Source: Heliobacteriaceae bacterium (GTDB taxonomy: Bacteria > Cyanobacteriota > Vampirovibrionia > Gastranaerophilales > Gastranaerophilaceae). From it: a stretch of 51,733 bases of DNA. The position numbers were made by a program, and so were the translations under genes. The notes beneath the pieces are model-generated. The model was not told the origin of the DNA and did not search any database. It was given only the letters and a program-made list of their open reading frames with translations. The stretch lies in contig JAISCP010000083.1 in the NCBI GenBank assembly GCA_031265495.1, positions 1 through 51,733 of the forward strand, written 5' to 3'. Positions 8,054 to 45,656 of this stretch are shown in pieces (position 1 is the stretch's first letter; every line of letters starts with the position of its first letter).

Positions 8054-8501
8054 TTTCTTCCTTTTTAGTACCGATAGTTTTTTTTTCAAACATTCTGGCG
8101 GAAACGAGCACCACAATCGCCAAAACGGTGGAAAACACCGCAAAGCCGTACATGCCTGCGCCGCAAGCCATTCCGACAGCCGCCGCCATCCACAGAGTAG
8201 CCGCCGTAGTGAGTCCGTGAACGGTTTCCCCGTGCCGGAGAACCGTTCCCCCGCCAATAAAGCCGATACCGGTAACTATTTGAGCCGCAACCCTTGCCGT
8301 ATCACGCACAGCCCCGCCTGCAGGCAAACCGTCCCCCATAATTAGCGGAAAACCGTAAATAGAAATTACCGTGAACACACACGCACCGAGACAAACAAGA
8401 ATATTTGTCCTTAACCCTGCATATTTATTGGAGAATTCACGCTCAAGCCCAATCGCAAACCCAAGCAGCAGAGCGGCTACTACTCTAATATATATATCCA
8501 T
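8046..8501 (-). CDS. mgtC: MgtC/SapB family membrane protein
   Basis: GLEREFSNKYAGLRTNILVCLGA...TGIGFIGGG is the typical MgtC N-terminal domain. Confidence 0.85.
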   Translation of the reverse strand: MDIYIRVVAALLLGFAIGLEREFSNKYAGLRTNILVCLGACVFTVISIYGFPLIMGDGLPAGGAVRDTARVAAQIVTGIGFIGGGTVLRHGETVHGLTTAATLWMAAAVGMACGAGMYGFAVFSTVLAIVVLVSARMFEKKTIGTKKEESN

Positions 8502-8514
8502 AATGACCTTTCTT

Positions 8515-8770
8515 AGAGACTAAGGGTTAGAGACTAGCTATTTCTTGTCTTTAACTCTTATCTCTCATTTTTTAATTAGTTCTACCTGTATACTTTGCTT
8601 GTTTTATTGAACATGCTTAACGGTTTTTAAACCTTTCAACTAATCTTTGACTGGATTGCTTCGTCGCAAGCTCCTCGCAATGACAGTATCAATAAAAGTT
8701 TCCGTTGTAAACCTTTCAACCATTCAACTTTTCAACTGTTCTGGTTTCCAGTCTCTAACCCCTAGTCTCT
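8515..8770. repeat. Composite repeat block bounded by 23-bp inverted repeats (AGAGACTAAGGGTTAGAGACTAG / CCAGTCTCTAACCCCTAGTCTCT)
   Basis: IR-L is 8515-8537 and IR-R is 8748-8770, matching at 21/23 as reverse complements. The interior holds family-A and octamer-array modules. Confidence 0.75.
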
Positions 8771-21778: not shown

Positions 21779-21860
21779 AAATCAAAGCCGGAAAGCCCGT
21801 CCACAGCGGCACTTCTCTATGTAAAAAATTGGGATACCCCAAAATCTACTGAATAAATAA

Positions 21861-22261
21861 TGGAGACGGCGGGAGTCGAACCCGCGTCCAAAATGGATTA
21901 AAACATGCTTCTACGAGTGTAGATATTATTATCTCGATTAAACCCGGAAAATATCACTACCGTTGGTTTAACCAAAGTATTTTTTTCGGAAATACAAAAC
22001 CTTTAAGGGTTAACTTGATACGCATACCCTCATCAGCGCACTGCAGCTTGCATAATTGCCATGTACACCGGCAAGCAGGGCGTACACAGCGGCCGGCTGC
22101 CTAAACAGCCATTGGCACTGGGGCAGTACCCCAGAGCGCAACTTTAGGCTCTACGATGTTGTTTTCAGCATCTAATTTGTTTGCTCGTTGATAACCGTGA
22201 ACAGCTCACGGACTCGCAGCCTGTTTTCACCGAACATTCTGTCAAAAGCCAAAACGTCCCC
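21861..22261 (-). ncRNA. ssrA: tmRNA (SsrA)
   Basis: 5' GGGGACG pairs with 3' CGTCTCC plus discriminator A, including a G3:U wobble. T-arm GGGTTCGACTCCC. Internal tag ORF has its stop in a hairpin loop (GGCTG-tttagg-CAGCC). CCA is not encoded. Confidence 0.85.
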
Positions 22262-23596: not shown

Positions 23597-24283
23597 CTAA
23601 AATATATCCACACTATCAGGGATTTGCCAGCCGCTTTGTACATATAATAATCCGCAATAAATGCCTGTGCTTGCCTTTTTGCAACTTGAAACAAGGTCTG
23701 CTGCTGTTGGCATCCCTTGTCCGTAAAAGTGTAATCCCGAATGGTTAGTATTATGACCCGTTCCTTCTTCTTGAAACGGAATTCTTGTAAATGTGAAAAG
23801 AAAACTGTCTACCCCATACTTATTCGGCCGCTTGGCTCCGTTAATATCAATGAAAAAATGCAGGTGATTATTGTCTTGTTTCAGAAACCCTACATAAGTT
23901 CCGTTATTTAGCACTCCCGTATAGTAAGTCGCAAGTGATGTGTCTTCACCAACATTACCGTTTGGAGCATATATTTTATTATCCGGCAGCCAGCAGGTAT
24001 TATCTGTTATGCCGCAGTTCCTGATTAATTGCAAGTACGGAACCAGATAGGTGTTTACAAAATCAGCTAAACTCAAACTCCAATCCCACTCGTCAAAATC
24101 GCCGTTATCTGCCTGAGAAAGCTTAACCATTTGTGTCAGGACCGCATATTCACGTTTTAACCCCGTAATTGCGTGCTGTTTTTTGTAGTCAGAAATAAGC
24201 GCCGGCATGGTCAATGATGCCACAATGCCGATAATCCCAAGAGTTATCAAAACTTCGGCAAGTGTAAAACCTTTTTGTTTCAT
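23597..24283 (-). CDS. Prepilin-type N-terminal cleavage/methylation domain protein (pilin/pseudopilin-like)
   Basis: MKQKGFTLAEVLITLGIIGIVASL. GGAGG lies 8 nt upstream of the ATG at 24283. Shares the DINGAKRPNKYGVDSF motif with the protein at 30305-31261. Confidence 0.85.
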   Translation of the reverse strand: MKQKGFTLAEVLITLGIIGIVASLTMPALISDYKKQHAITGLKREYAVLTQMVKLSQADNGDFDEWDWSLSLADFVNTYLVPYLQLIRNCGITDNTCWLPDNKIYAPNGNVGEDTSLATYYTGVLNNGTYVGFLKQDNNHLHFFIDINGAKRPNKYGVDSFLFTFTRIPFQEEGTGHNTNHSGLHFYGQGMPTAADLVSSCKKASTGIYCGLLYVQSGWQIPDSVDIF

Positions 24284-25774: not shown

Positions 25775-25823
25775 CGGTTTGTTTTGTTTGTCATAGACTA
25801 ATAGCATTGAAAATTTATAATAT

Positions 25824-26135
25824 CGGGATGCAGCACTCTGCCGAGTGAAACAATCCGGCGAATTGTTTCACGAGAGGTGGCAGCGCACTTTTTCAAATGG
25901 AACATTTGAAAATTTAATAGAAAATATCGGGATGTAGCACTCTGCCGAGTGAAACAATCCGGTGAATTGTTTCACGAGAGGTGGTAGCGCACCTTTTCAA
26001 ATGGAACATTTGAAAATTTAATAGAAAATATCGGGATGTAGCACTCTGCCGAGTGAAACAATCCGGCGAATTGTTTCACGAGAGGTGGTAGCGCACTTTT
26101 TCAAATGAAACATTTGAAAATTTAATAGAAAATAT
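25824..26135. repeat. Three 104-bp tandem units, each a tRNA-Pro 5' fragment with a hairpin-element insert plus a promoter-like spacer
   Basis: Units start at 25824, 25928 and 26032, and the authentic tRNA starts one period later at 26136. A unit reads CGGGATGTAGC-[ACTCTGCCGAGTGAAACAATCCGGCGAATTGTTTCACGAGAGGTG]-GTAGCGCAC-TTTTT.... Confidence 0.9.
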
Positions 26136-26209
26136 CGGGATGTAGCGCAGCTTGGTAGCGCACCTCGCTTGGGACGAGGGGGTCGCACGTTCAAATCGTG
26201 TCATCCCGA
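26136..26209 (+). tRNA. tRNA-Pro (anticodon UGG)
   Basis: Cloverleaf by hand: acceptor CGGGATG/CATCCCG, D-arm GCGC/GCGC, anticodon loop CTTGGGA, T-arm GCACG-TTCAAAT-CGTGT, discriminator A. CCA is not encoded. Confidence 0.95.
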
Positions 26210-26273
26210 TTTATTTAATCATGGTGCGACCCGGGGTCGTAATATGAAATTCGCAAGGCAAGCCTTGCTCGGG

Positions 26274-26393: not shown

Positions 26394-27272
26394 TTAATTG
26401 TCCTGATTTTTCGTTATTTTCTTTGGCTGTTTAGCCGCTGGCAGATGGTTATCATCTGTTACAACTTTTTTGCCGGTTTTGTTTTCAAGCTGTTTTCTTG
26501 CTTGCTTTGCGATACCGCCACCTTGTTTTGCGGCTGTTGTGTTTTCCTGCATACCGACAGCCTGCTCTGTTTCCGCAATTTGCCGTGTTGAAAGTTCAGC
26601 CAATGCCGTAAAAATAAGTTCCGCTTCGCTCATATGGTCACGTAAATTTTGGGATTTCAAGCCCTTCAAATCTTTGTGTTCTTTGACGGATAAGCCCGTC
26701 CATTCCTGATGAATAATATTTGTCAAAATGGCAAACTCCTGACCTTTTTTAATATCGTGGTCTTTCCAGTAATCAGTCAACTTATTGCGGGTTTCCTGTC
26801 CTGTCAAACGCTGTTCAATCCATTTATCTGAATATCCGAGTTGTTTGTAAGTTTCTCTTGCCCTGTCAATCGCCGCTGTCGGGTCAACCATTTCCTGCAT
26901 ACGCTCATAGCCGGTTTTTGCAAGCCAAGTCTTAAACGGCTCTGCTTTTGGCGAAGGAACGGACTGCACAAGCCGCAAAATTCCTTCTGTATCAAGGACA
27001 TCAGTTAGGCGCATTTTGCCGTCAGATGCTTTCATTTTCAACTGATTAGTATTACTAACCGGTTGGCTTTTATCCAAACCGTGACAATTTGTCACGGTTT
27101 GATTTCCTTCTTCTTTAAGCCGTTGTTTTAACTTTCGCCAATACGCCGCAGGGTCAGGACTGTCCGTTAAAATCCCGACCACATCCACTACCGAAAACCA
27201 CCATTTTTCGAGTTCTCCATCCCACACGGAGCGAACCTGTCTTCCTTCAAATAATTTAACTTCATTGCCCAT
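26394..27272 (-). CDS. BRO-N domain protein (phage antirepressor-like N-terminus)
   Basis: VRSVWDGELEKWWFSVVDVVGILTDS...KMRLTDVLDTEGILRLVQSVPSPKAEPFKTWLAKTGYERM resembles BRO-N family proteins from memory. Confidence 0.55.
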   Translation of the reverse strand: MGNEVKLFEGRQVRSVWDGELEKWWFSVVDVVGILTDSPDPAAYWRKLKQRLKEEGNQTVTNCHGLDKSQPVSNTNQLKMKASDGKMRLTDVLDTEGILRLVQSVPSPKAEPFKTWLAKTGYERMQEMVDPTAAIDRARETYKQLGYSDKWIEQRLTGQETRNKLTDYWKDHDIKKGQEFAILTNIIHQEWTGLSVKEHKDLKGLKSQNLRDHMSEAELIFTALAELSTRQIAETEQAVGMQENTTAAKQGGGIAKQARKQLENKTGKKVVTDDNHLPAAKQPKKITKNQDN

Positions 27273-27500: not shown

Positions 27501-28583
27501 TTGGACTTTACAACATTAACAATTGACGCATTGAAAGCGCTGGCAGCTGTTGCAGGCAATTACGGCATTGCGATAATTCTGCTTACGGTTGCGGTACGGC
27601 TTGCAATGTGGCCGCTGAATGTTTCGCAGCAGCGTTCCATGCGGCAGATGCAGGCGCTTCAGCCTAAATTAAAAGCTATTCAGACCAGATACAAAAGCGA
27701 TCCGCAAAAAATGCAGACCAAAATGATGGAGTTCTATAAAGAACACAATTTTAACCCTATGGGCGGCTGCATGCCTTTGTTAATCCAAATGCCGATTTTT
27801 ATACTTTTGTATTCGGCGCTGATGAGTCCGCAGTTTATACAAATAGCCGGCGATACCTCGTTTCTCGGAATAAAGCGTCTGGATACGACCCTCCGCGCAT
27901 CTGCTGGAATTTCAAATGATGGTGTTATGGGAGTTTCAAAAAATGATATTTTTAATGCTGGAAAGACCGCCAGAGTTTATATTTCCGGAGAAGTTGTAGA
28001 AAATGTTAAAATAAACAAACCCGCAAAGGCTCTTGAAATTCAGGGAGAAATCAAGCCCGGAGAACCGATTGATTTTAAAATCAGCCTTGACCATTTGGAT
28101 TTGAAGTTTTCTCAGCTTGATAAAATTGAAAAGGCGGATATTTCCGTAACCGATGTCAACACAAGAGAGACGGAAAAAGCGTCTTTTGAAAGACAAGACG
28201 GTTTGTTAACGGCTTCTGTTCCGACTGTTGAGGTAAAGCAGGCTTTTCATTGGGATATTCTTGTATTAATTGCAATTTTCGGGCTGACAATGTGGCTGTC
28301 GCAGAAGTTTATGATGTCTGTCAACAAAAATAATTCAAAAGACCCTGCGCAGGAGGCAATTCAAAAATCAATGGGAACATTTATGCCTCTTATGATTATT
28401 GCCACGTTTGTTATAATCCCTATTCCCGCAGGTGTTTTGCTTTATCTGGTAACGAGCAATATTCTTCAAATCGCGCAGACTGTCATAGTTAATAAGCAAA
28501 TGGATCTTGAAGACGCCAAAAAACAGGCGAAGATTGATGATGAAGATTTGAACAACGCAAAAAAAATAGAACCGAAAGAATGA
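27501..28583 (+). CDS. yidC: Membrane protein insertase YidC (Oxa1 family), with a large internal insertion
   Basis: IILLTVAVRLAMWPL..QRSMRQMQALQPKLKAIQ..YKEHNFNPMGGCMPLLIQMPIFILLY. TTG start has AGGAAA upstream. Confidence 0.85.
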   Translation: MDFTTLTIDALKALAAVAGNYGIAIILLTVAVRLAMWPLNVSQQRSMRQMQALQPKLKAIQTRYKSDPQKMQTKMMEFYKEHNFNPMGGCMPLLIQMPIFILLYSALMSPQFIQIAGDTSFLGIKRLDTTLRASAGISNDGVMGVSKNDIFNAGKTARVYISGEVVENVKINKPAKALEIQGEIKPGEPIDFKISLDHLDLKFSQLDKIEKADISVTDVNTRETEKASFERQDGLLTASVPTVEVKQAFHWDILVLIAIFGLTMWLSQKFMMSVNKNNSKDPAQEAIQKSMGTFMPLMIIATFVIIPIPAGVLLYLVTSNILQIAQTVIVNKQMDLEDAKKQAKIDDEDLNNAKKIEPKE

Positions 28584-29605
28584 AACTGTCCGAATTTGAT
28601 TATGAACTGCCGGAAGAATTAATCGCCCAAATGCCTTGCGATAAGCGTGAAAATTCTAAGATGCTCATTCTGGATAAAACCAATAAAACAATTGAACACA
28701 AGCATTTTTATGACATTACGGATTTGCAGGATACGCTGCTTGTTTTGAATAACACAAAAGTAATACCGGCGCGGCTTTATGCTGAAAAAGAAACAGGAGC
28801 AAAGATTGAAATATTTTTGCTGAAGGAGCTTGAGCCGCAGAAATGGGAAGTTCTGATAAAGCCTTCCAAACGGGTTAAAGCCGGTCAGACTTTGCATGTA
28901 AGCGATGAATTAGCAGTGGAGGTTTTGGAGAAACTTGACGGCAAATGGCTTGCCGGACTGCTTTATACGGGGAACATTTTTGATGTTTTGGAGCGTAACG
29001 GTCATATTCCTTTGCCGCCTTACATTGAACGGAAAACAGAGAACTTTAAGGATTTGGATTTTGAGCGCTATCAGACGGTGTATGCCGCAAAAGAGGGTTC
29101 GGTTGCGGCGCCGACAGCGGGGCTGCATTTTACGCGGGATATTCTGCAGAAACTGGAGAGCAGAGGAATTGAAACAGCTTATGTTACGCTGAATGTCGGA
29201 CTGGGAACCTTCAGACCGGTAAAGAGCGAAAATATATCGGAGCATAAAATGGAATCGGAAAGTTTTGAGATTTCGCCCGAAACGGCTGACGCTGTTAACA
29301 GGGCAAAGCAGTCCGGCAGAAAGATTACCTGTGTTGGCACAACTACGGTGCGCACGCTGGAAACGGCATTCCGAAAATACGGGAAGATTACAGCCTGCCG
29401 TGATACTTCGGAACTTTTCATTTACCCGCCGTATAATTTCAGGATAACAGACAGCTTAATAACAAACTTTCACCTGCCCAAATCCACTTTACTGATGCTG
29501 GTAAGCGCTTTAGCGGGAAAAGATTTGATTTTCAGGGCTTACGAGGAAGCTATTGCGAACAGGTACCGGTTCTACAGTTACGGCGACTGCATGTTTATTT
29601 CATAG
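28580..29605 (+). CDS. queA: S-adenosylmethionine:tRNA ribosyltransferase-isomerase
   Basis: MKLSEFDYELPEELIAQ...AAPTAGLHFT...VGTTTVRTLE. Overlaps the yidC stop by 4 nt. Confidence 0.95.
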   Translation: MKLSEFDYELPEELIAQMPCDKRENSKMLILDKTNKTIEHKHFYDITDLQDTLLVLNNTKVIPARLYAEKETGAKIEIFLLKELEPQKWEVLIKPSKRVKAGQTLHVSDELAVEVLEKLDGKWLAGLLYTGNIFDVLERNGHIPLPPYIERKTENFKDLDFERYQTVYAAKEGSVAAPTAGLHFTRDILQKLESRGIETAYVTLNVGLGTFRPVKSENISEHKMESESFEISPETADAVNRAKQSGRKITCVGTTTVRTLETAFRKYGKITACRDTSELFIYPPYNFRITDSLITNFHLPKSTLLMLVSALAGKDLIFRAYEEAIANRYRFYSYGDCMFIS

Positions 29606-29697
29606 AATGTAAATAGTAAACAGGGAAGAGGGAACAGCTAAATTCCTCTCCTGTATGGAGAGGGAAAATCAAGTTCAGGACGACAAAATATAACAAT

Positions 29698-29727
29698 TTG
29701 ACAAGGTTTGCCTAAGTGTTGTATAAT
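29698..29727 (+). promoter_or_regulatory. Consensus sigma-70-type promoter TTGACA-N18-TATAAT
   Basis: TTGACA at 29698-29703 and TATAAT at 29722-29727, followed by AAGGAGG at 29747-29753. Confidence 0.6.
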
Positions 29728-29760
29728 TCTGCTGTGATAATTGAAGAAGGAGGTATGGTT

Positions 29761-29832
29761 ATGGATAAAACAATTAAAAATGGCCACAATGCAGTAATAG
29801 AGGCACTTTCGGGGGGGGGGGGGGCTTTCTAG
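29761..29832 (+). CDS. Mini-ORF (23 aa) crossing the G14 tract
   Basis: The ATG lies 7 nt after AAGGAGG. My translation is MDKTIKNGHNAVIEALSGGGGAF followed by TAG. An alternative in-frame ATG is at 29755. Confidence 0.3.
   Translation: MDKTIKNGHNAVIEALSGGGGAF
29811..29824. repeat. Homopolymeric G14 tract
   Basis: Counted directly: 14 consecutive G. Confidence 0.95.
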
Positions 29833-30304
29833 CTGCTTCCTGCAAGGCTTTCCGCCTTTCGGCAAAAAACCTGTCATTCTGAACCTGTTCCGAAATTTCT
29901 ATGATTTCCTCTCCATACGGGAGAGGAAGAATTTCTTAATGAACACAGCGTGTGAATTTAGAAATTCAGGTGAGGGGGCGCAAAACCGAATAAATCTTGG
30001 GTGGAGCAAATGTCATGGGTTCTGCCTGACCGCCCCCTCATCCCAAACACTAAGCTCAACCTGCGATTTCGCCAAGTGTTTGCGCCCTCTCCCGCGGGGA
30101 GAGGGCGCAAGAATATTTGTTCCCCCCTTGAGGGGGAACCGGAATTTACTCTGTAAATTCCGAAGGGGGGCAGCCTTCACACTGGCGGAGCAGGCTGAGC
30201 CTGCCGCGTTAGTTCGTCATTGCGAGAAGGGCGTAAGCCCGACGAAGCAATCCAGAAAATCAACAGTCTTGACTGGATTGCTTCGCTCCCGCCGGTCGCT
30301 CGCA

Positions 30305-31261
30305 ATGACACGACAAGCCTTCACGTTGGCAGAGGTATTGATAACTCTATCCGTAATCGGAGTTGTGGCAGCGTTAACCATGCCAGCATTAATGGCAAAC
30401 TGGCAGGAGAAATCATATTCGACCGCCAAAGAAGTATTTGACAGACGGCTTGAAGAAGTTACCCGCCAAATGAACGTAAATGAAGCCTTAACAGGTTATA
30501 CAACGACAGAAACATTTGTAGATGAACTAAAGAAATATCTAAAAATATCACAAGTATGTTCGAGTGACCCGTCAAGCTGTTTTGCTGCGGCGATAACGAA
30601 CGGCGACGGCAGTGAAACAGTAGAGACAAAAGACTTAAAGAATTCAAATAATTTAAACAAAGGAAACTGGGGCACAAAAGCCTTAGGCGTAGGTCTGATA
30701 AACGGTTATACGGCAATCCTAAGCTATAATCCTGATTGTCCTGCACTGGATATAGGAGCAGCGGGCGCACAAACAACCTCATGTTTGAGTCTTGTATATG
30801 ATATAAACGGAAAATCAAAACCAAACAGGTTAGGCAGAGATGTTTACACATTAAACGCAAACCCATTCGACACATGCGGCGGAGTAAAGATAGGGAGTTT
30901 ATGCGTAGCAGTATCAGATGAGACATACAGCTCGATAGATACTTGTGACGGAACTTCAGAGTATGACAAAAATCTTACAATTGCAAACGGTTATGTTTAC
31001 TATCATTGTTCAACTAACAATTGGGCAGGCGCAAAGAAGGCTTGCGACTATATAGGCATGCGTCTCCCCACAAAGGACGAACTAAACATGTTGTACCAAC
31101 ATAAAGACGAGCTGGCAATGTCATCTGTCGGATACTGGTCTTCTACGGAGGCCACCGATAAACTCTTCGCATGGAGTCAAAGCTTTCCTGACGGCAACCA
31201 GAGCGCCAACCACAAGGACAACGGCGACGCCTACTACCACATCGTTCGGTGTGTGAGGTGA
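30305..31261 (+). CDS. Prepilin-type N-terminal domain protein with a C-terminal DUF1566 (Lcl C-terminal, lectin-like) domain
   Basis: MTRQAFTLAEVLITLSVIGVVAALTMPAL. C-terminus WAGAKKACDYIGMRLPTKDEL...GYWSSTE...FAWSQSFPDG...VRCVR fits the DUF1566 pattern. The track ORF starts at 29939 but its first 122 aa translate repeat modules. Confidence 0.75.
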   Translation: MTRQAFTLAEVLITLSVIGVVAALTMPALMANWQEKSYSTAKEVFDRRLEEVTRQMNVNEALTGYTTTETFVDELKKYLKISQVCSSDPSSCFAAAITNGDGSETVETKDLKNSNNLNKGNWGTKALGVGLINGYTAILSYNPDCPALDIGAAGAQTTSCLSLVYDINGKSKPNRLGRDVYTLNANPFDTCGGVKIGSLCVAVSDETYSSIDTCDGTSEYDKNLTIANGYVYYHCSTNNWAGAKKACDYIGMRLPTKDELNMLYQHKDELAMSSVGYWSSTEATDKLFAWSQSFPDGNQSANHKDNGDAYYHIVRCVR

Positions 31262-31618: not shown

Positions 31619-32953
31619 ATGGAATTTGTTGTAAAAATTGAAAAATTATCGAATTTGGGATTTGGGATAGCCAGAATTGATTCGCAGGTTGTCTTTGTTG
31701 AAGGCGCCTGTCCGGGCGATGAAGTCAAAATAGAGATTACCCAAAAACACAGGAATTTTTCCCATGCCCGGATTACGGAAATTATAACCCCTTCCGTACA
31801 CCGTGTTAAGCCTGTTTGCGCAATGCAAAAAGTTTGCGGCGCATGCCGGCTGCAATTCATTGACTATAATTATCAGCTTGAACTAAAACGCCAAATCGTG
31901 CAGGACGCCATGCGTACAATCGGAAATCTTGATATTGAAATTCCAGCCCCTGTGCCAAGTCCGCAGATTTTTGGCTATCGCCGTAAAATTCAATATCCCG
32001 TGTCAGAAACGAAAGTTTCAAAAAGGCTGCTTGCGGGGTATTACAAACCGCAGTCGCATGAGATTGTGAACATCAAACACTGCCCTATTCAGCCCGCAAT
32101 TTGTGATGATATTATTGATTTTATAAGAAATAAAGCGCCGGATTTCGGGATTTCCGGCTATAACGAAAGAAAGCACAGCGGGGATTTGCGCCATATTGTA
32201 ATCCGGTCTTCCGCCTCAGAGGGCGCTAACCTTGTTACACTTGCGGTTAATGCAACGAAACCGTTTCAGCGTTTAAAAGATTTTGCGCGGGCTGTTTTTG
32301 ATGAATTCCGGGAAGTCAGCGGAGTCTGCGTAAATTTTAATTCAAAAAAAACAAACGTGATTATGGGCGCCAAAACGGAATGTCTTGCAGGCAAAAACTT
32401 TGTTGAGGAAAAGATTTTAGGTAAAACTTTTAAAATCGGCGCAAACACGTTCTTTCAGGTTAACCCTGAGAGCGCGGAAAATATTTTTGCTTATGTAAGA
32501 GATTATATACGGCAAAACTTCAACGCTCCGGTAGTTTTGGACGCTTATGCCGGTATAAGTTCTTTTGGGATTTGCGTTTCCGATGTATGCAAAAAAGTTG
32601 TAAGCGTGGAAGAAAACGCAGACTCCTGTGATTTCGCACGGGCAGCTGCGCCTGATAATCCGGAAATTCACAACATGGACGTATCAGAGTTTTTTGCAAA
32701 AGAAAAACGCAAATTTGACGTAATAATAGTTGACCCGCCCCGTAAAGGCTGTACGCAGCAGTCTCTGGACGAAGCATGCCGGCTTTTAAAACCGAAGGGC
32801 AGAATAATTTACGTAAGCTGCAATCCTGCAACGCTTGCGCGCGATTTGAAATATTTAACCGGAAAGGGCGCGAAGGTAGAAAGTATTCAGCCGTTTGATA
32901 TGTTTTGCCACACTTACCACATTGAAAACGCCGCTGTTATTTCTGTGCATTAA
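31619..32953 (+). CDS. 23S rRNA (uracil-5-)-methyltransferase, RlmD/RumA-like (TRAM + SAM methyltransferase)
   Basis: N-terminal TRAM-like beta domain, Cys cluster C..CGAC, FFQVN and the C-terminal DPPRKG...YVSCNP motif. Confidence 0.85.
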   Translation: MEFVVKIEKLSNLGFGIARIDSQVVFVEGACPGDEVKIEITQKHRNFSHARITEIITPSVHRVKPVCAMQKVCGACRLQFIDYNYQLELKRQIVQDAMRTIGNLDIEIPAPVPSPQIFGYRRKIQYPVSETKVSKRLLAGYYKPQSHEIVNIKHCPIQPAICDDIIDFIRNKAPDFGISGYNERKHSGDLRHIVIRSSASEGANLVTLAVNATKPFQRLKDFARAVFDEFREVSGVCVNFNSKKTNVIMGAKTECLAGKNFVEEKILGKTFKIGANTFFQVNPESAENIFAYVRDYIRQNFNAPVVLDAYAGISSFGICVSDVCKKVVSVEENADSCDFARAAAPDNPEIHNMDVSEFFAKEKRKFDVIIVDPPRKGCTQQSLDEACRLLKPKGRIIYVSCNPATLARDLKYLTGKGAKVESIQPFDMFCHTYHIENAAVISVH

Positions 32954-45239: not shown

Positions 45240-45656
45240 TTTTCAATCTCCTTCTTACATTTAATCTACACGACCAGATTACAACAAACACAAAAGTAAG
45301 ACAAGAGGGAATTAAGAGGTATGGAGGGCCGGAGGGATAGAGGTATGGCTTTTTAGTTGAAGGGTTAAATAGTTGAAAGGTTGAAAGGCTGAGCTACCCT
45401 CCCCTTGAGGGAGGGTCGAAATTTGCTTTGGCAAATTTCGGGGTGGGGTATAAAAGGCTGAAGGTATGGCTGAGCCTGCCCTTCTCCCAGAGGGAGAAGG
45501 TGCCCGCGGATGAGGGTTTTATTAATTAAGTGAATAGGAAAGAGGGAACATGAAAGAGTCCCGCCCTGTCATGCTGAACAACCACCCAGTCACCCTGAAC
45601 TTGATTCAGGGTCTATCAGTTTAATTGAAATTGATAGATTCCGGGTCAAGCCCGGA

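Follow-up and report, generated by a model that had tools for sequence, protein, structure and literature searches.

A poly-G tract in the leader of a pilin-like adhesin gene, a candidate phase switch in Gastranaerophilales

The DNA analyzed here is a 51,733-nt stretch (hereafter the window; 40.6% GC), a complete contig from an uncultured gut bacterium of the Gastranaerophilales (Melainabacteria). The gene order around the subject locus is yidC, queA (28580-29605), a pilin-like gene preceded by a long tract of G residues, and a TRAM/U5-methyltransferase gene (31619-32953). As annotated, the coding sequence of the pilin-like protein occupies 30305-31261 on the + strand (318 amino acids, aa). 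The subject of this report is the G tract with the signals around it, a candidate switch for the expression of the pilin-like gene.

Upstream of the pilin-like gene, a sigma-70 consensus promoter is found on the + strand, with TTGACA at 29698-29703, an 18-nt spacer and TATAAT at 29722-29727 (12/12 match). From queA to the pilin ATG, no other site on the + strand matches at 9/12 positions or more, and scanning of the + strand from 29728 to 30305 showed no further promoter-like site; a perfect TTGACA-N16-18-TATAAT occurs twice in the 51.7 kb, compared to 0.01 expected. The promoter is followed on the same strand by a Shine-Dalgarno (SD) sequence, AAGGAGG (29747-29753), 7 nt upstream of the ATG at 29761. 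This SD ranks among the strongest in the window, and the arrangement AAGGAGG-N7-ATG occurs only once in it (0.06 expected). The ATG at 29755, also in frame, is too near the SD. The leader open reading frame (ORF) as assembled (29761-29832, + strand), encoding MDKTIKNGHNAVIEALSGGGGAF and ending at TAG 29830-29832, runs through 14 consecutive G residues (29811-29824, + strand), the proposed slipped-strand switch and the only homopolymer of more than 9 nt in the window. On re-reading of the window, the coordinates that the initial annotation had given for promoter, SD, ATG, tract and stop codon proved exact. The 170 nt with promoter, SD, mini-ORF and tract are present as a single copy within the window.

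At 14 nt, the tract exceeds the length of ~8 nt from which G/C runs count as hypermutable. The length of the tract determines which frame is read beyond it. From ATG 29761, G14 or G17 gives a peptide of 23 aa and G15 one of 40 aa, whereas lengths of 3k+1 (13, 16) correspond to the on state. Counted from ATG 29755, the ORF has 25 codons with G14, 42 with G15 and 501 or 502 with G13 or G16. It had been proposed that the frame of position 29801 is open to 31261 and that G13 or G16 would join the mini-ORF to it; we confirmed the open frame up to the stop codon of the pilin gene, and the 501/502-codon ORF ends in the pilin. In the pilin frame there are 0 stops after the tract, compared to 10 and 7 in the other + strand frames over the 480-nt stretch, or 11 and 7 if counted to the mature N-terminus. 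The chance of such an open frame is P = 0.006 under a first-order Markov null (Markov-1) and P = 0.0055 under a null in which the repeat modules of the stretch are placed in random orientation and phase.

The sequence from the tract to ATG 30305 (about 480 nt) consists mostly of repeat modules, several of them with copies elsewhere in the window, where dispersed hairpin repeat modules of this kind crowd the intergenic DNA throughout. Between 29858 and 30304 (+ strand), the modules are stacked one upon another and are free of stops in the pilin frame. Folding of the leader RNA indicated strong structure (z = -7.2), with terminator-like hairpins at 29905-29929 and 30079-30111. The last hairpin repeat (family D2/I10; 30216-30309, + strand; -54.4 kcal/mol, z = -3.9) has an 11-bp closing stem formed by GTCATTGCGAG and CTCGCAATGAC. 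The annotated start codon of the pilin gene (30305-30307) sits in the 3' arm of this repeat (CTCGCAATGAC, 30299-30309) and is paired in the stem. The initial annotation had described ATG 30305 as lying inside a repeat and without an SD; we found it to be so and, in addition, base-paired. ATG 29939 was dismissed as the true start, being inside a dispersed repeat. Peptides predicted from the in-frame leader include LSSCFLQGFPPFGK and NFLMNTACEFR. In the Rfam search of the leader, no family reached gathering score; whalefall-1 matched below threshold on the modules at 29905-29977 and 30117-30171. Elsewhere in the window, a repeat copy at 45394-45450 reaches the gathering score of whalefall-1. Within the leader stretch there is also a pseudo N-terminus, AAFTLAEQ, at 30170-30190, and another ('AFTLAE') is present in the leader of a second locus, L031, at 8127-8150.

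The N-terminus of the annotated protein, MTRQA/FTLAEVLITLSVIGVVAALTMPAL (MTRQA/FTLAEVLITLSVIGVVAAL...; the slash marks the predicted prepilin cleavage site), has an FTLAE motif followed by a hydrophobic helix. Cleavage is predicted between A (30317-30319) and F (30320-30322) and would leave a mature protein of 313 aa. The sequence has the class III leader pattern, namely a G/A end, F at +1, E at +5 and about 20 hydrophobic residues. It scored 19.8 bits with Pfam N_methyl (PF07963), compared to a cut-off of 21.2, and many of its homologues have a precomputed PF07963 match. At the C-terminus (~31031-31258, + strand), there is a lectin-like Lcl_C/DUF1566 domain, with 31.1 bits for Lcl_C (PF07603; cut-off 34.9) and homologues that carry PF07603. 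In the AlphaFold2 model, the N-terminal helix (residues 8-58) has low predicted local distance difference test (pLDDT) values, whereas the C-terminal domain has values of 85-93. Foldseek matched the model to the C-terminal domain of Legionella Lcl (8q4e; E = 6.7e-5, probability 1.0), with C-type-lectin-like folds below. The protein thus resembles modular type IV pilins and Legionella Lcl (PDB 8q4e), with an N-terminal pilin helix and a C-terminal lectin-like module. A homologue search with it yielded more than 5000 matches, indicative of a very large family. Among the scanned ORFs of the window (the window only, not the rest of the genome), there were no genes for prepilin peptidase or pilus assembly.

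The cassette recurs on an independent metagenome contig of the Joint Genome Institute (JGI), L083, a paralogous locus where SD and ATG are unchanged, the promoter is ~95% identical and the pilin 73% identical. Its mini-ORF encodes MKKELKNGCNAVTAPLSGGGGGAF up to the stop codon and contains a tract of G17. With conserved flanks on both sides of the tract, this contig ruled out a sequencing or assembly artefact at the poly-G. The 3' flank of the tract in the window, CTTTCTAGCTGCTTCCTGCAAGGCTTTCCGCC (29825-29857, + strand), is kept in L083 and partly in L031 ('cctagcaaggctttcgg'), and CTTTCTA follows the tract in another copy, L084, as well. Between the tract and the pilin, the window has 342 nt (3 x 114) more repeat-module DNA than L083; the counterpart of the last hairpin in L083 has -41 kcal/mol. 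As a conserved small protein, the mini-ORF itself is a weak candidate: compared to that of L083, it shows 7 non-synonymous and 2 synonymous changes.

To see the layout beyond these two loci, we used Gastranaerophilales DNA amounting to 585 kb, most of it from around queA in GTDB genomes, with 13 pilin-like N-termini. QueA of the window is at most 71% identical to those of GTDB genomes, and its top matches are all from Gastranaerophilales/Melainabacteria. In the 585 kb, all 7 runs of G or C of at least 8 nt are located on the coding strand no more than 500 nt upstream of pilin-like N-termini. The set read at the DNA level comprises six loci: the window, L083, and four loci of other species (QueA 63-67% identical), L012, L031, L026 and L045. 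Each of the six has an SD-led ATG, 29-56 nt past which a G/C tract of 9-17 nt is reached, and the ORF as assembled has 13-26 codons. In L012, L031, L026 and L045, the SD is AGGAG, AGGAGG or GAAGGA, the tract begins 29-38 nt past the ATG, and the ORFs have 13-19 codons.

At all six loci (6/6), a change of 1 nt in the tract yields a stop-free fusion to the pilin-like ORF. The nearest fusing length in the window is G13 (G14 assembled), with a leader of 188 aa from ATG 29755 or 186 aa from ATG 29761; in L083 it is G16 (G17 assembled; leader 75 aa), in L012 G10 (G11; 53 aa), in L031 G9 (G10; 64 aa), in L026 G8 (G9; 33 aa) and in L045 C11 on the coding strand (C10; 29 aa). From the tract to the codon of the mature F, the pilin frame has 0 stops in 6/6 loci, compared to 1-11 in the other frames. 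The chance of an open frame is 0.006 for the window and 0.31, 0.048, 0.082, 0.147 and 0.442 for the others, with a product of 5e-7. In L012, L031, L026 and L045, there is no in-frame ATG near the cleavage site; in these four species, therefore, the upstream ATG is the natural start of the gene. The pilin-like proteins downstream of the tracts are 25-44% identical to that of the window or alignable at the N-terminus only, so the design is a trait of the lineage rather than of one subfamily. In L026, there is also an out-of-frame ATG with an A6 run (ATGATAAAAAAGCT; ~8722-8740, - strand) just upstream of the mature N-terminus. One A more would give a start of MIKKA/F; the run may be an error of assembly or act as a further switch.

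Using a profile of the mini-ORF and its read-through, we found further copies of the window's cassette (7 called mini-ORFs), and P0128 was added from a cluster look-up. The homologous mini-ORFs P0121-P0128 are from the same genome as the window or a related one. Another member of the cluster, P0129 (811 aa), is an unrelated, helicase-like protein and was rejected. Two metagenome scans gave no matches. In the 8 cassette copies, the tracts measure 14-21 nt and all three frames are represented; six of the lengths (14, 14, 14, 15-16, 16 and 21 nt) were deduced from peptides, not DNA. 'EEGGMVM' is kept in the 8 copies, with the variants KEGGMVM in P0121 and EEEGMVM in P0125 and P0128. One 45-kb contig holds three cassettes and three pilin paralogues, and one 29-kb contig holds one cassette with the closest paralogue. 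Judged from the source pattern, six further copies probably share a metagenome-assembled genome with the window (NCBI 'Heliobacteriaceae bacterium', locus-tag prefix LBK53). Together with L083, these seven further copies would let several adhesin paralogues switch independently.

In-frame alleles were found among the proteins in databases. A search with the in-frame version of L031 retrieved P0142, whose leader (MLKSEAMTGFKTLGGGRNALLARLSDVLGLFPRP...; MLKSEAMTGFKTLGGGRNALLARLSDVLGLFPRPLRERGKNA/F) corresponds to the L031 cassette in frame with the pilin. Of 109 homologues, 12 have GGG or PPP within the called leader, for example MGGGTSLSS..., MLAGGGGSSLTS... and ...SRPPPRLALYKG/F. Leaders called at 30-120 aa are frequent in this family, and many of them hold a translated hairpin repeat (HCE...EAIQ) or a pseudo N-terminus (AFTLAEGG...). 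Hairpin-repeat sequence (...HCE...EAIQ...) is seen in the called leaders of P0014, P0018, P0022, P0044, P0056, P0060 and P0069, all from other species; repeats have therefore entered the leader-coding DNA of many family members. In many homologues from the gut (P0042, P0065, P0091 and others), a 20-aa unit, AFTLAEGGRRPLLNLGQxKS, precedes the true A/FTLAEV and is doubled tandemly in P0091. For one other protein, P0004, the called N-terminal extension was rejected as coding, because it is a chance open frame running through a promoter.

Tract lengths were compared among paralogues and orthologues. They differ, range over 9-21 nt and occupy all frames, but no single-G difference at the same locus was found; in the 90%-identity protein clusters in which such polymorphism was sought, there were swapped leader types only. 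P0237 and P0269, on the one hand, and P0268, P0270 and P0271, on the other, come from different assemblies and have mature pilins at least 90% identical, with a tract-type leader (MGGGTSLSSHRAGFGVFRSKG/F) in the former and MKKIG/F in the latter. This suggests that 5' ends have been exchanged between alleles or paralogues.

We consider it probable, from sequence comparison, that the pilin-like adhesin gene truly begins with the promoter, SD and mini-ORF and that the G14 in its leader-coding part is a slipped-strand translational switch. With G14, ribosomes starting at ATG 29761 would halt at TAG 29830 after 23 codons and the gene would be off. Slipped-strand mispairing at replication would produce G13 or G16 and bring the start codon into the pilin frame. 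In this on state, ribosomes would cross ~480 nt of hairpin-repeat-derived sequence, melting the hairpin over the internal ATG, and the product would be a preprotein whose leader of ~186 aa is cut at A/FTLAEV by prepilin peptidase. A variable Gly run and repeat-encoded filler would be tolerable because the leader is discarded. The proposal of the initial annotation that a 1-nt slip links the SD-led mini-ORF to the pilin as a phase switch is thereby supported, by the layout of the six loci and by the in-frame alleles. Anatomy, its conservation, the open frames, the tight association of tract and pilin and the in-frame alleles can be read directly; from these we infer that the DNA switches within this population, that the promoter is used and that a leader of this length is cleaved. 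The initial annotation had doubted whether a long repeat-encoded leader would be tolerated on a prepilin. This doubt is eased because repeat-bearing leaders of 30-120 aa are common and the stretch in the window is stop-free (P ~0.006).

Several observations weigh against a translational phase switch. All the loci read as DNA (6/6) are off, and 5/6 need the loss of one G, which fits programmed recoding too. P0121, the sole paralogue with a tract that appears to be in the fusion frame, stops 23 codons past the tract. In the window and in L083, an in-frame ATG gives an ordinary 5-aa leader (MTRQA/F), like that of most paralogues, and we know of no precedent for a prepilin leader of 186 aa. P0004 shows that chance open frames occur, which calls for caution with arguments from a single frame. 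L084 has G11 directly upstream of the pilin ATG and no leader ORF, so that in some copies the tract cannot work via the reading frame. In this copy (L084 55-123), the order is TTGACA-17-TATAAA, G11, CTTTCT and the pilin ATG; there is no other SD, and the tract is in the place of the SD. The paralogue L085 has ordinary signals and no tract. Apparently, some members of the family, such as L084 and L085, are not under the control of a poly-G in a leader ORF.

Of the other explanations, the one that survives best is attenuation or unmasking as in the pil1 operon of Streptococcus gallolyticus, which we nevertheless regard as unlikely. The alternative offered by the initial annotation, a tract gating a long 5' leader, is of this kind. 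The mini-ORF would then encode a separate regulatory leader peptide, tract length would set how far ribosomes travel, and the pilin would start at 30305 (MTRQA leader), with the fusion a by-product. Long read-through would block the terminator-like hairpins and open the hairpin over ATG 30305. The order of promoter, ribosome-binding site (RBS), tract-bearing leader ORF, hairpins and pilus gene matches that described by Danne et al. 2014 (PMC3894217); terminator-like hairpins are present in the window, its leader RNA is highly structured (z = -7.2, as given above), and ATG 30305 is in frame, with a typical leader, and buried in a stem that a passing ribosome could open. As in pil1, a promoter, an RBS, a short repeat-bearing leader ORF and hairpins precede a pilus gene, and the frame of the leader sets ribosome travel. 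In the pil1 operon, translation of pilA begins from a separate RBS and never yields a fusion with the leader peptide; the control point is a single intrinsic terminator, and the repeat is GCAGA (PMC3894217). In the window, by contrast, the long frame coincides with that of the pilin, a homopolymer takes the place of GCAGA, and the terminator is not conserved across loci: no terminator-like hairpin was found between tract and pilin in L083, L026 and L045 (read by eye, not scanned with a tool). Because the only long frame is already that of the pilin, read-through is expected rather than re-initiation. ATG 30305 has no SD, and the other four species lack an ATG in frame around the cleavage site at which a separate pilin could start.

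Programmed recoding at a fixed slippery tract, by a +1 shift of the ribosome or the drop of a G by the polymerase, would give a constant fraction of full-length product, with the 'off' length as the working state; we hold this to be quite unlikely. It would explain why all six loci read as DNA are out of frame and why five of them need the same +1 shift (equal to the loss of one G). Taken over 12 copies, ~7-8 are in the frame that needs +1. In the window, L083, L031 and L026, the zero-frame stop is 0-2 codons past the tract. At the recoding site of prfB, a stop comes after a G-rich, SD-like element, and the tract with its early stop resembles this context. The frame bias, however, is marginal (about P = 0.02-0.07 by our estimate). 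All three frames are occupied: the shift would have to be the opposite one in P0124, P0127 and L045, and P0121 would do without any. Alleles that are in frame already exist, and tracts of 9-21 nt are well beyond what recoding needs and are inherently unstable in DNA.

It is very improbable that the locus is a decaying relic, its 5' end severed by repeat insertions, its tract without a role and its pilin, if expressed, made from ATG 30305 via read-through or an unrecognized promoter: ~480 nt of mobile-looking repeats do separate cassette and pilin, the JGI and NCBI annotations both start the pilin internally, and an SD-less start is not unusual (about half of the window genes have no clear SD), but the frame across the repeats is stop-free (P ~0.006), the surplus over L083 has a length divisible by 3, none of the 8 known cassette copies has lost its promoter, SD or ATG, and the tract is at least 14 nt long in every leader-cassette copy, although long runs decay fast without selection.

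A phase switch of this kind has close parallels. The opa genes of Neisseria have CTCTT repeats, and several paralogues switch independently. In pilC of Neisseria, a poly-G tract in the region encoding the signal peptide is described as a site of phase variation (Jonsson et al. 1991, as summarized in PMC5354566). Like pilC and opa, the window locus would have a hypermutable tract in the cleaved-leader part of a pilus or adhesin gene, on/off control by frameshift and independently switchable paralogues. Unlike pilC, which encodes a Sec signal peptide, the locus encodes a pilin-like protein with a class III prepilin leader. It differs from the Neisseria systems further in that tracts of the window type are longer (up to G17-21), the leader of the window is expanded to ~186 aa by in-frame hairpin repeats, and the host is a Melainabacterium. 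Contingency genes of Campylobacter and Helicobacter have poly-G/C tracts of ~8-14 nt in the 5' part of genes for surface structures, many of them off in a given genome (PMC8355987). Compared to these, the locus belongs to another phylum, its target is type IV pilin-like modular adhesins, and the tract lies within a leader that would be discarded.

A literature search for Melainabacteria or Gastranaerophilales together with phase variation or homopolymeric tracts found no paper, with coverage that was incomplete and does not prove novelty. What appears to be new is the lineage, the class III leader of a modular pilin-like adhesin as the target, the exclusive association of long G/C runs with pilins, and the repeat-expanded leader. 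The Gastranaerophilales are widespread uncultured gut relatives of cyanobacteria whose surface biology is almost unknown. Our comparisons indicate that they may run, on a large family of pilin-like, lectin-headed adhesins, a contingency-gene system such as is known above all from Neisseria and Campylobacter. For genome mining, long G/C runs mark pilin-like genes (every one in the surveyed DNA), and gene callers systematically mis-start the genes under tract control.

Tentatively, the idea can be extended to the prepilin leader as a disposable and expandable coding region, into which repeats resembling miniature inverted-repeat transposable elements insert in frame, to be translated and clipped off; with the poly-G and the hairpin over the ATG, the gene would have a two-layer stochastic switch. 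If this possibility were true, class III leaders would reach ~186 aa, beyond any known to us, and at least 8 adhesin paralogues with a two-layer switch would provide an uncultured gut commensal with a combinatorial surface repertoire. If the long repeat-built leader is translated and removed, mobile hairpin repeats can persist in coding DNA by hiding in the cleaved part.

Loci of this type are hidden in short-read assembly graphs. The Logan contigs of SRR14710922 break off on either side of the cassette and its repeats, L001 ending at window position 29696, the cassette edge, and L002 starting at ~31544, as multi-copy sequence would lead one to expect; this assembly therefore offers no second view of the tract.

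In two loci from Clostridia, L052 (10998-11007) and L077 (3730-3738), the spacer of a promoter contains a G10 or C9 run (TTGACA-tttttc-G10-TACAAT). Such an arrangement resembles a poly-G switch of transcription, here in gut bacteria that are unrelated.

Some other features of the window were recorded. A second pilin-like gene (23597-24283, - strand), MKQKG/FTLAEV with N_methyl and DUF6613, is preceded by a GGAGG SD of its own and lacks a tract. A transfer-messenger RNA is located at 21858-22261 (- strand), with the tag peptide AENNIVEPKVALWGTAPVPMAV. At 25812-26146, a 127-nt unit is repeated three times in tandem (period 104) and runs into tRNA-Pro (26135-26210), and a gene with a BRO-N domain (26394-27272) adjoins this region.

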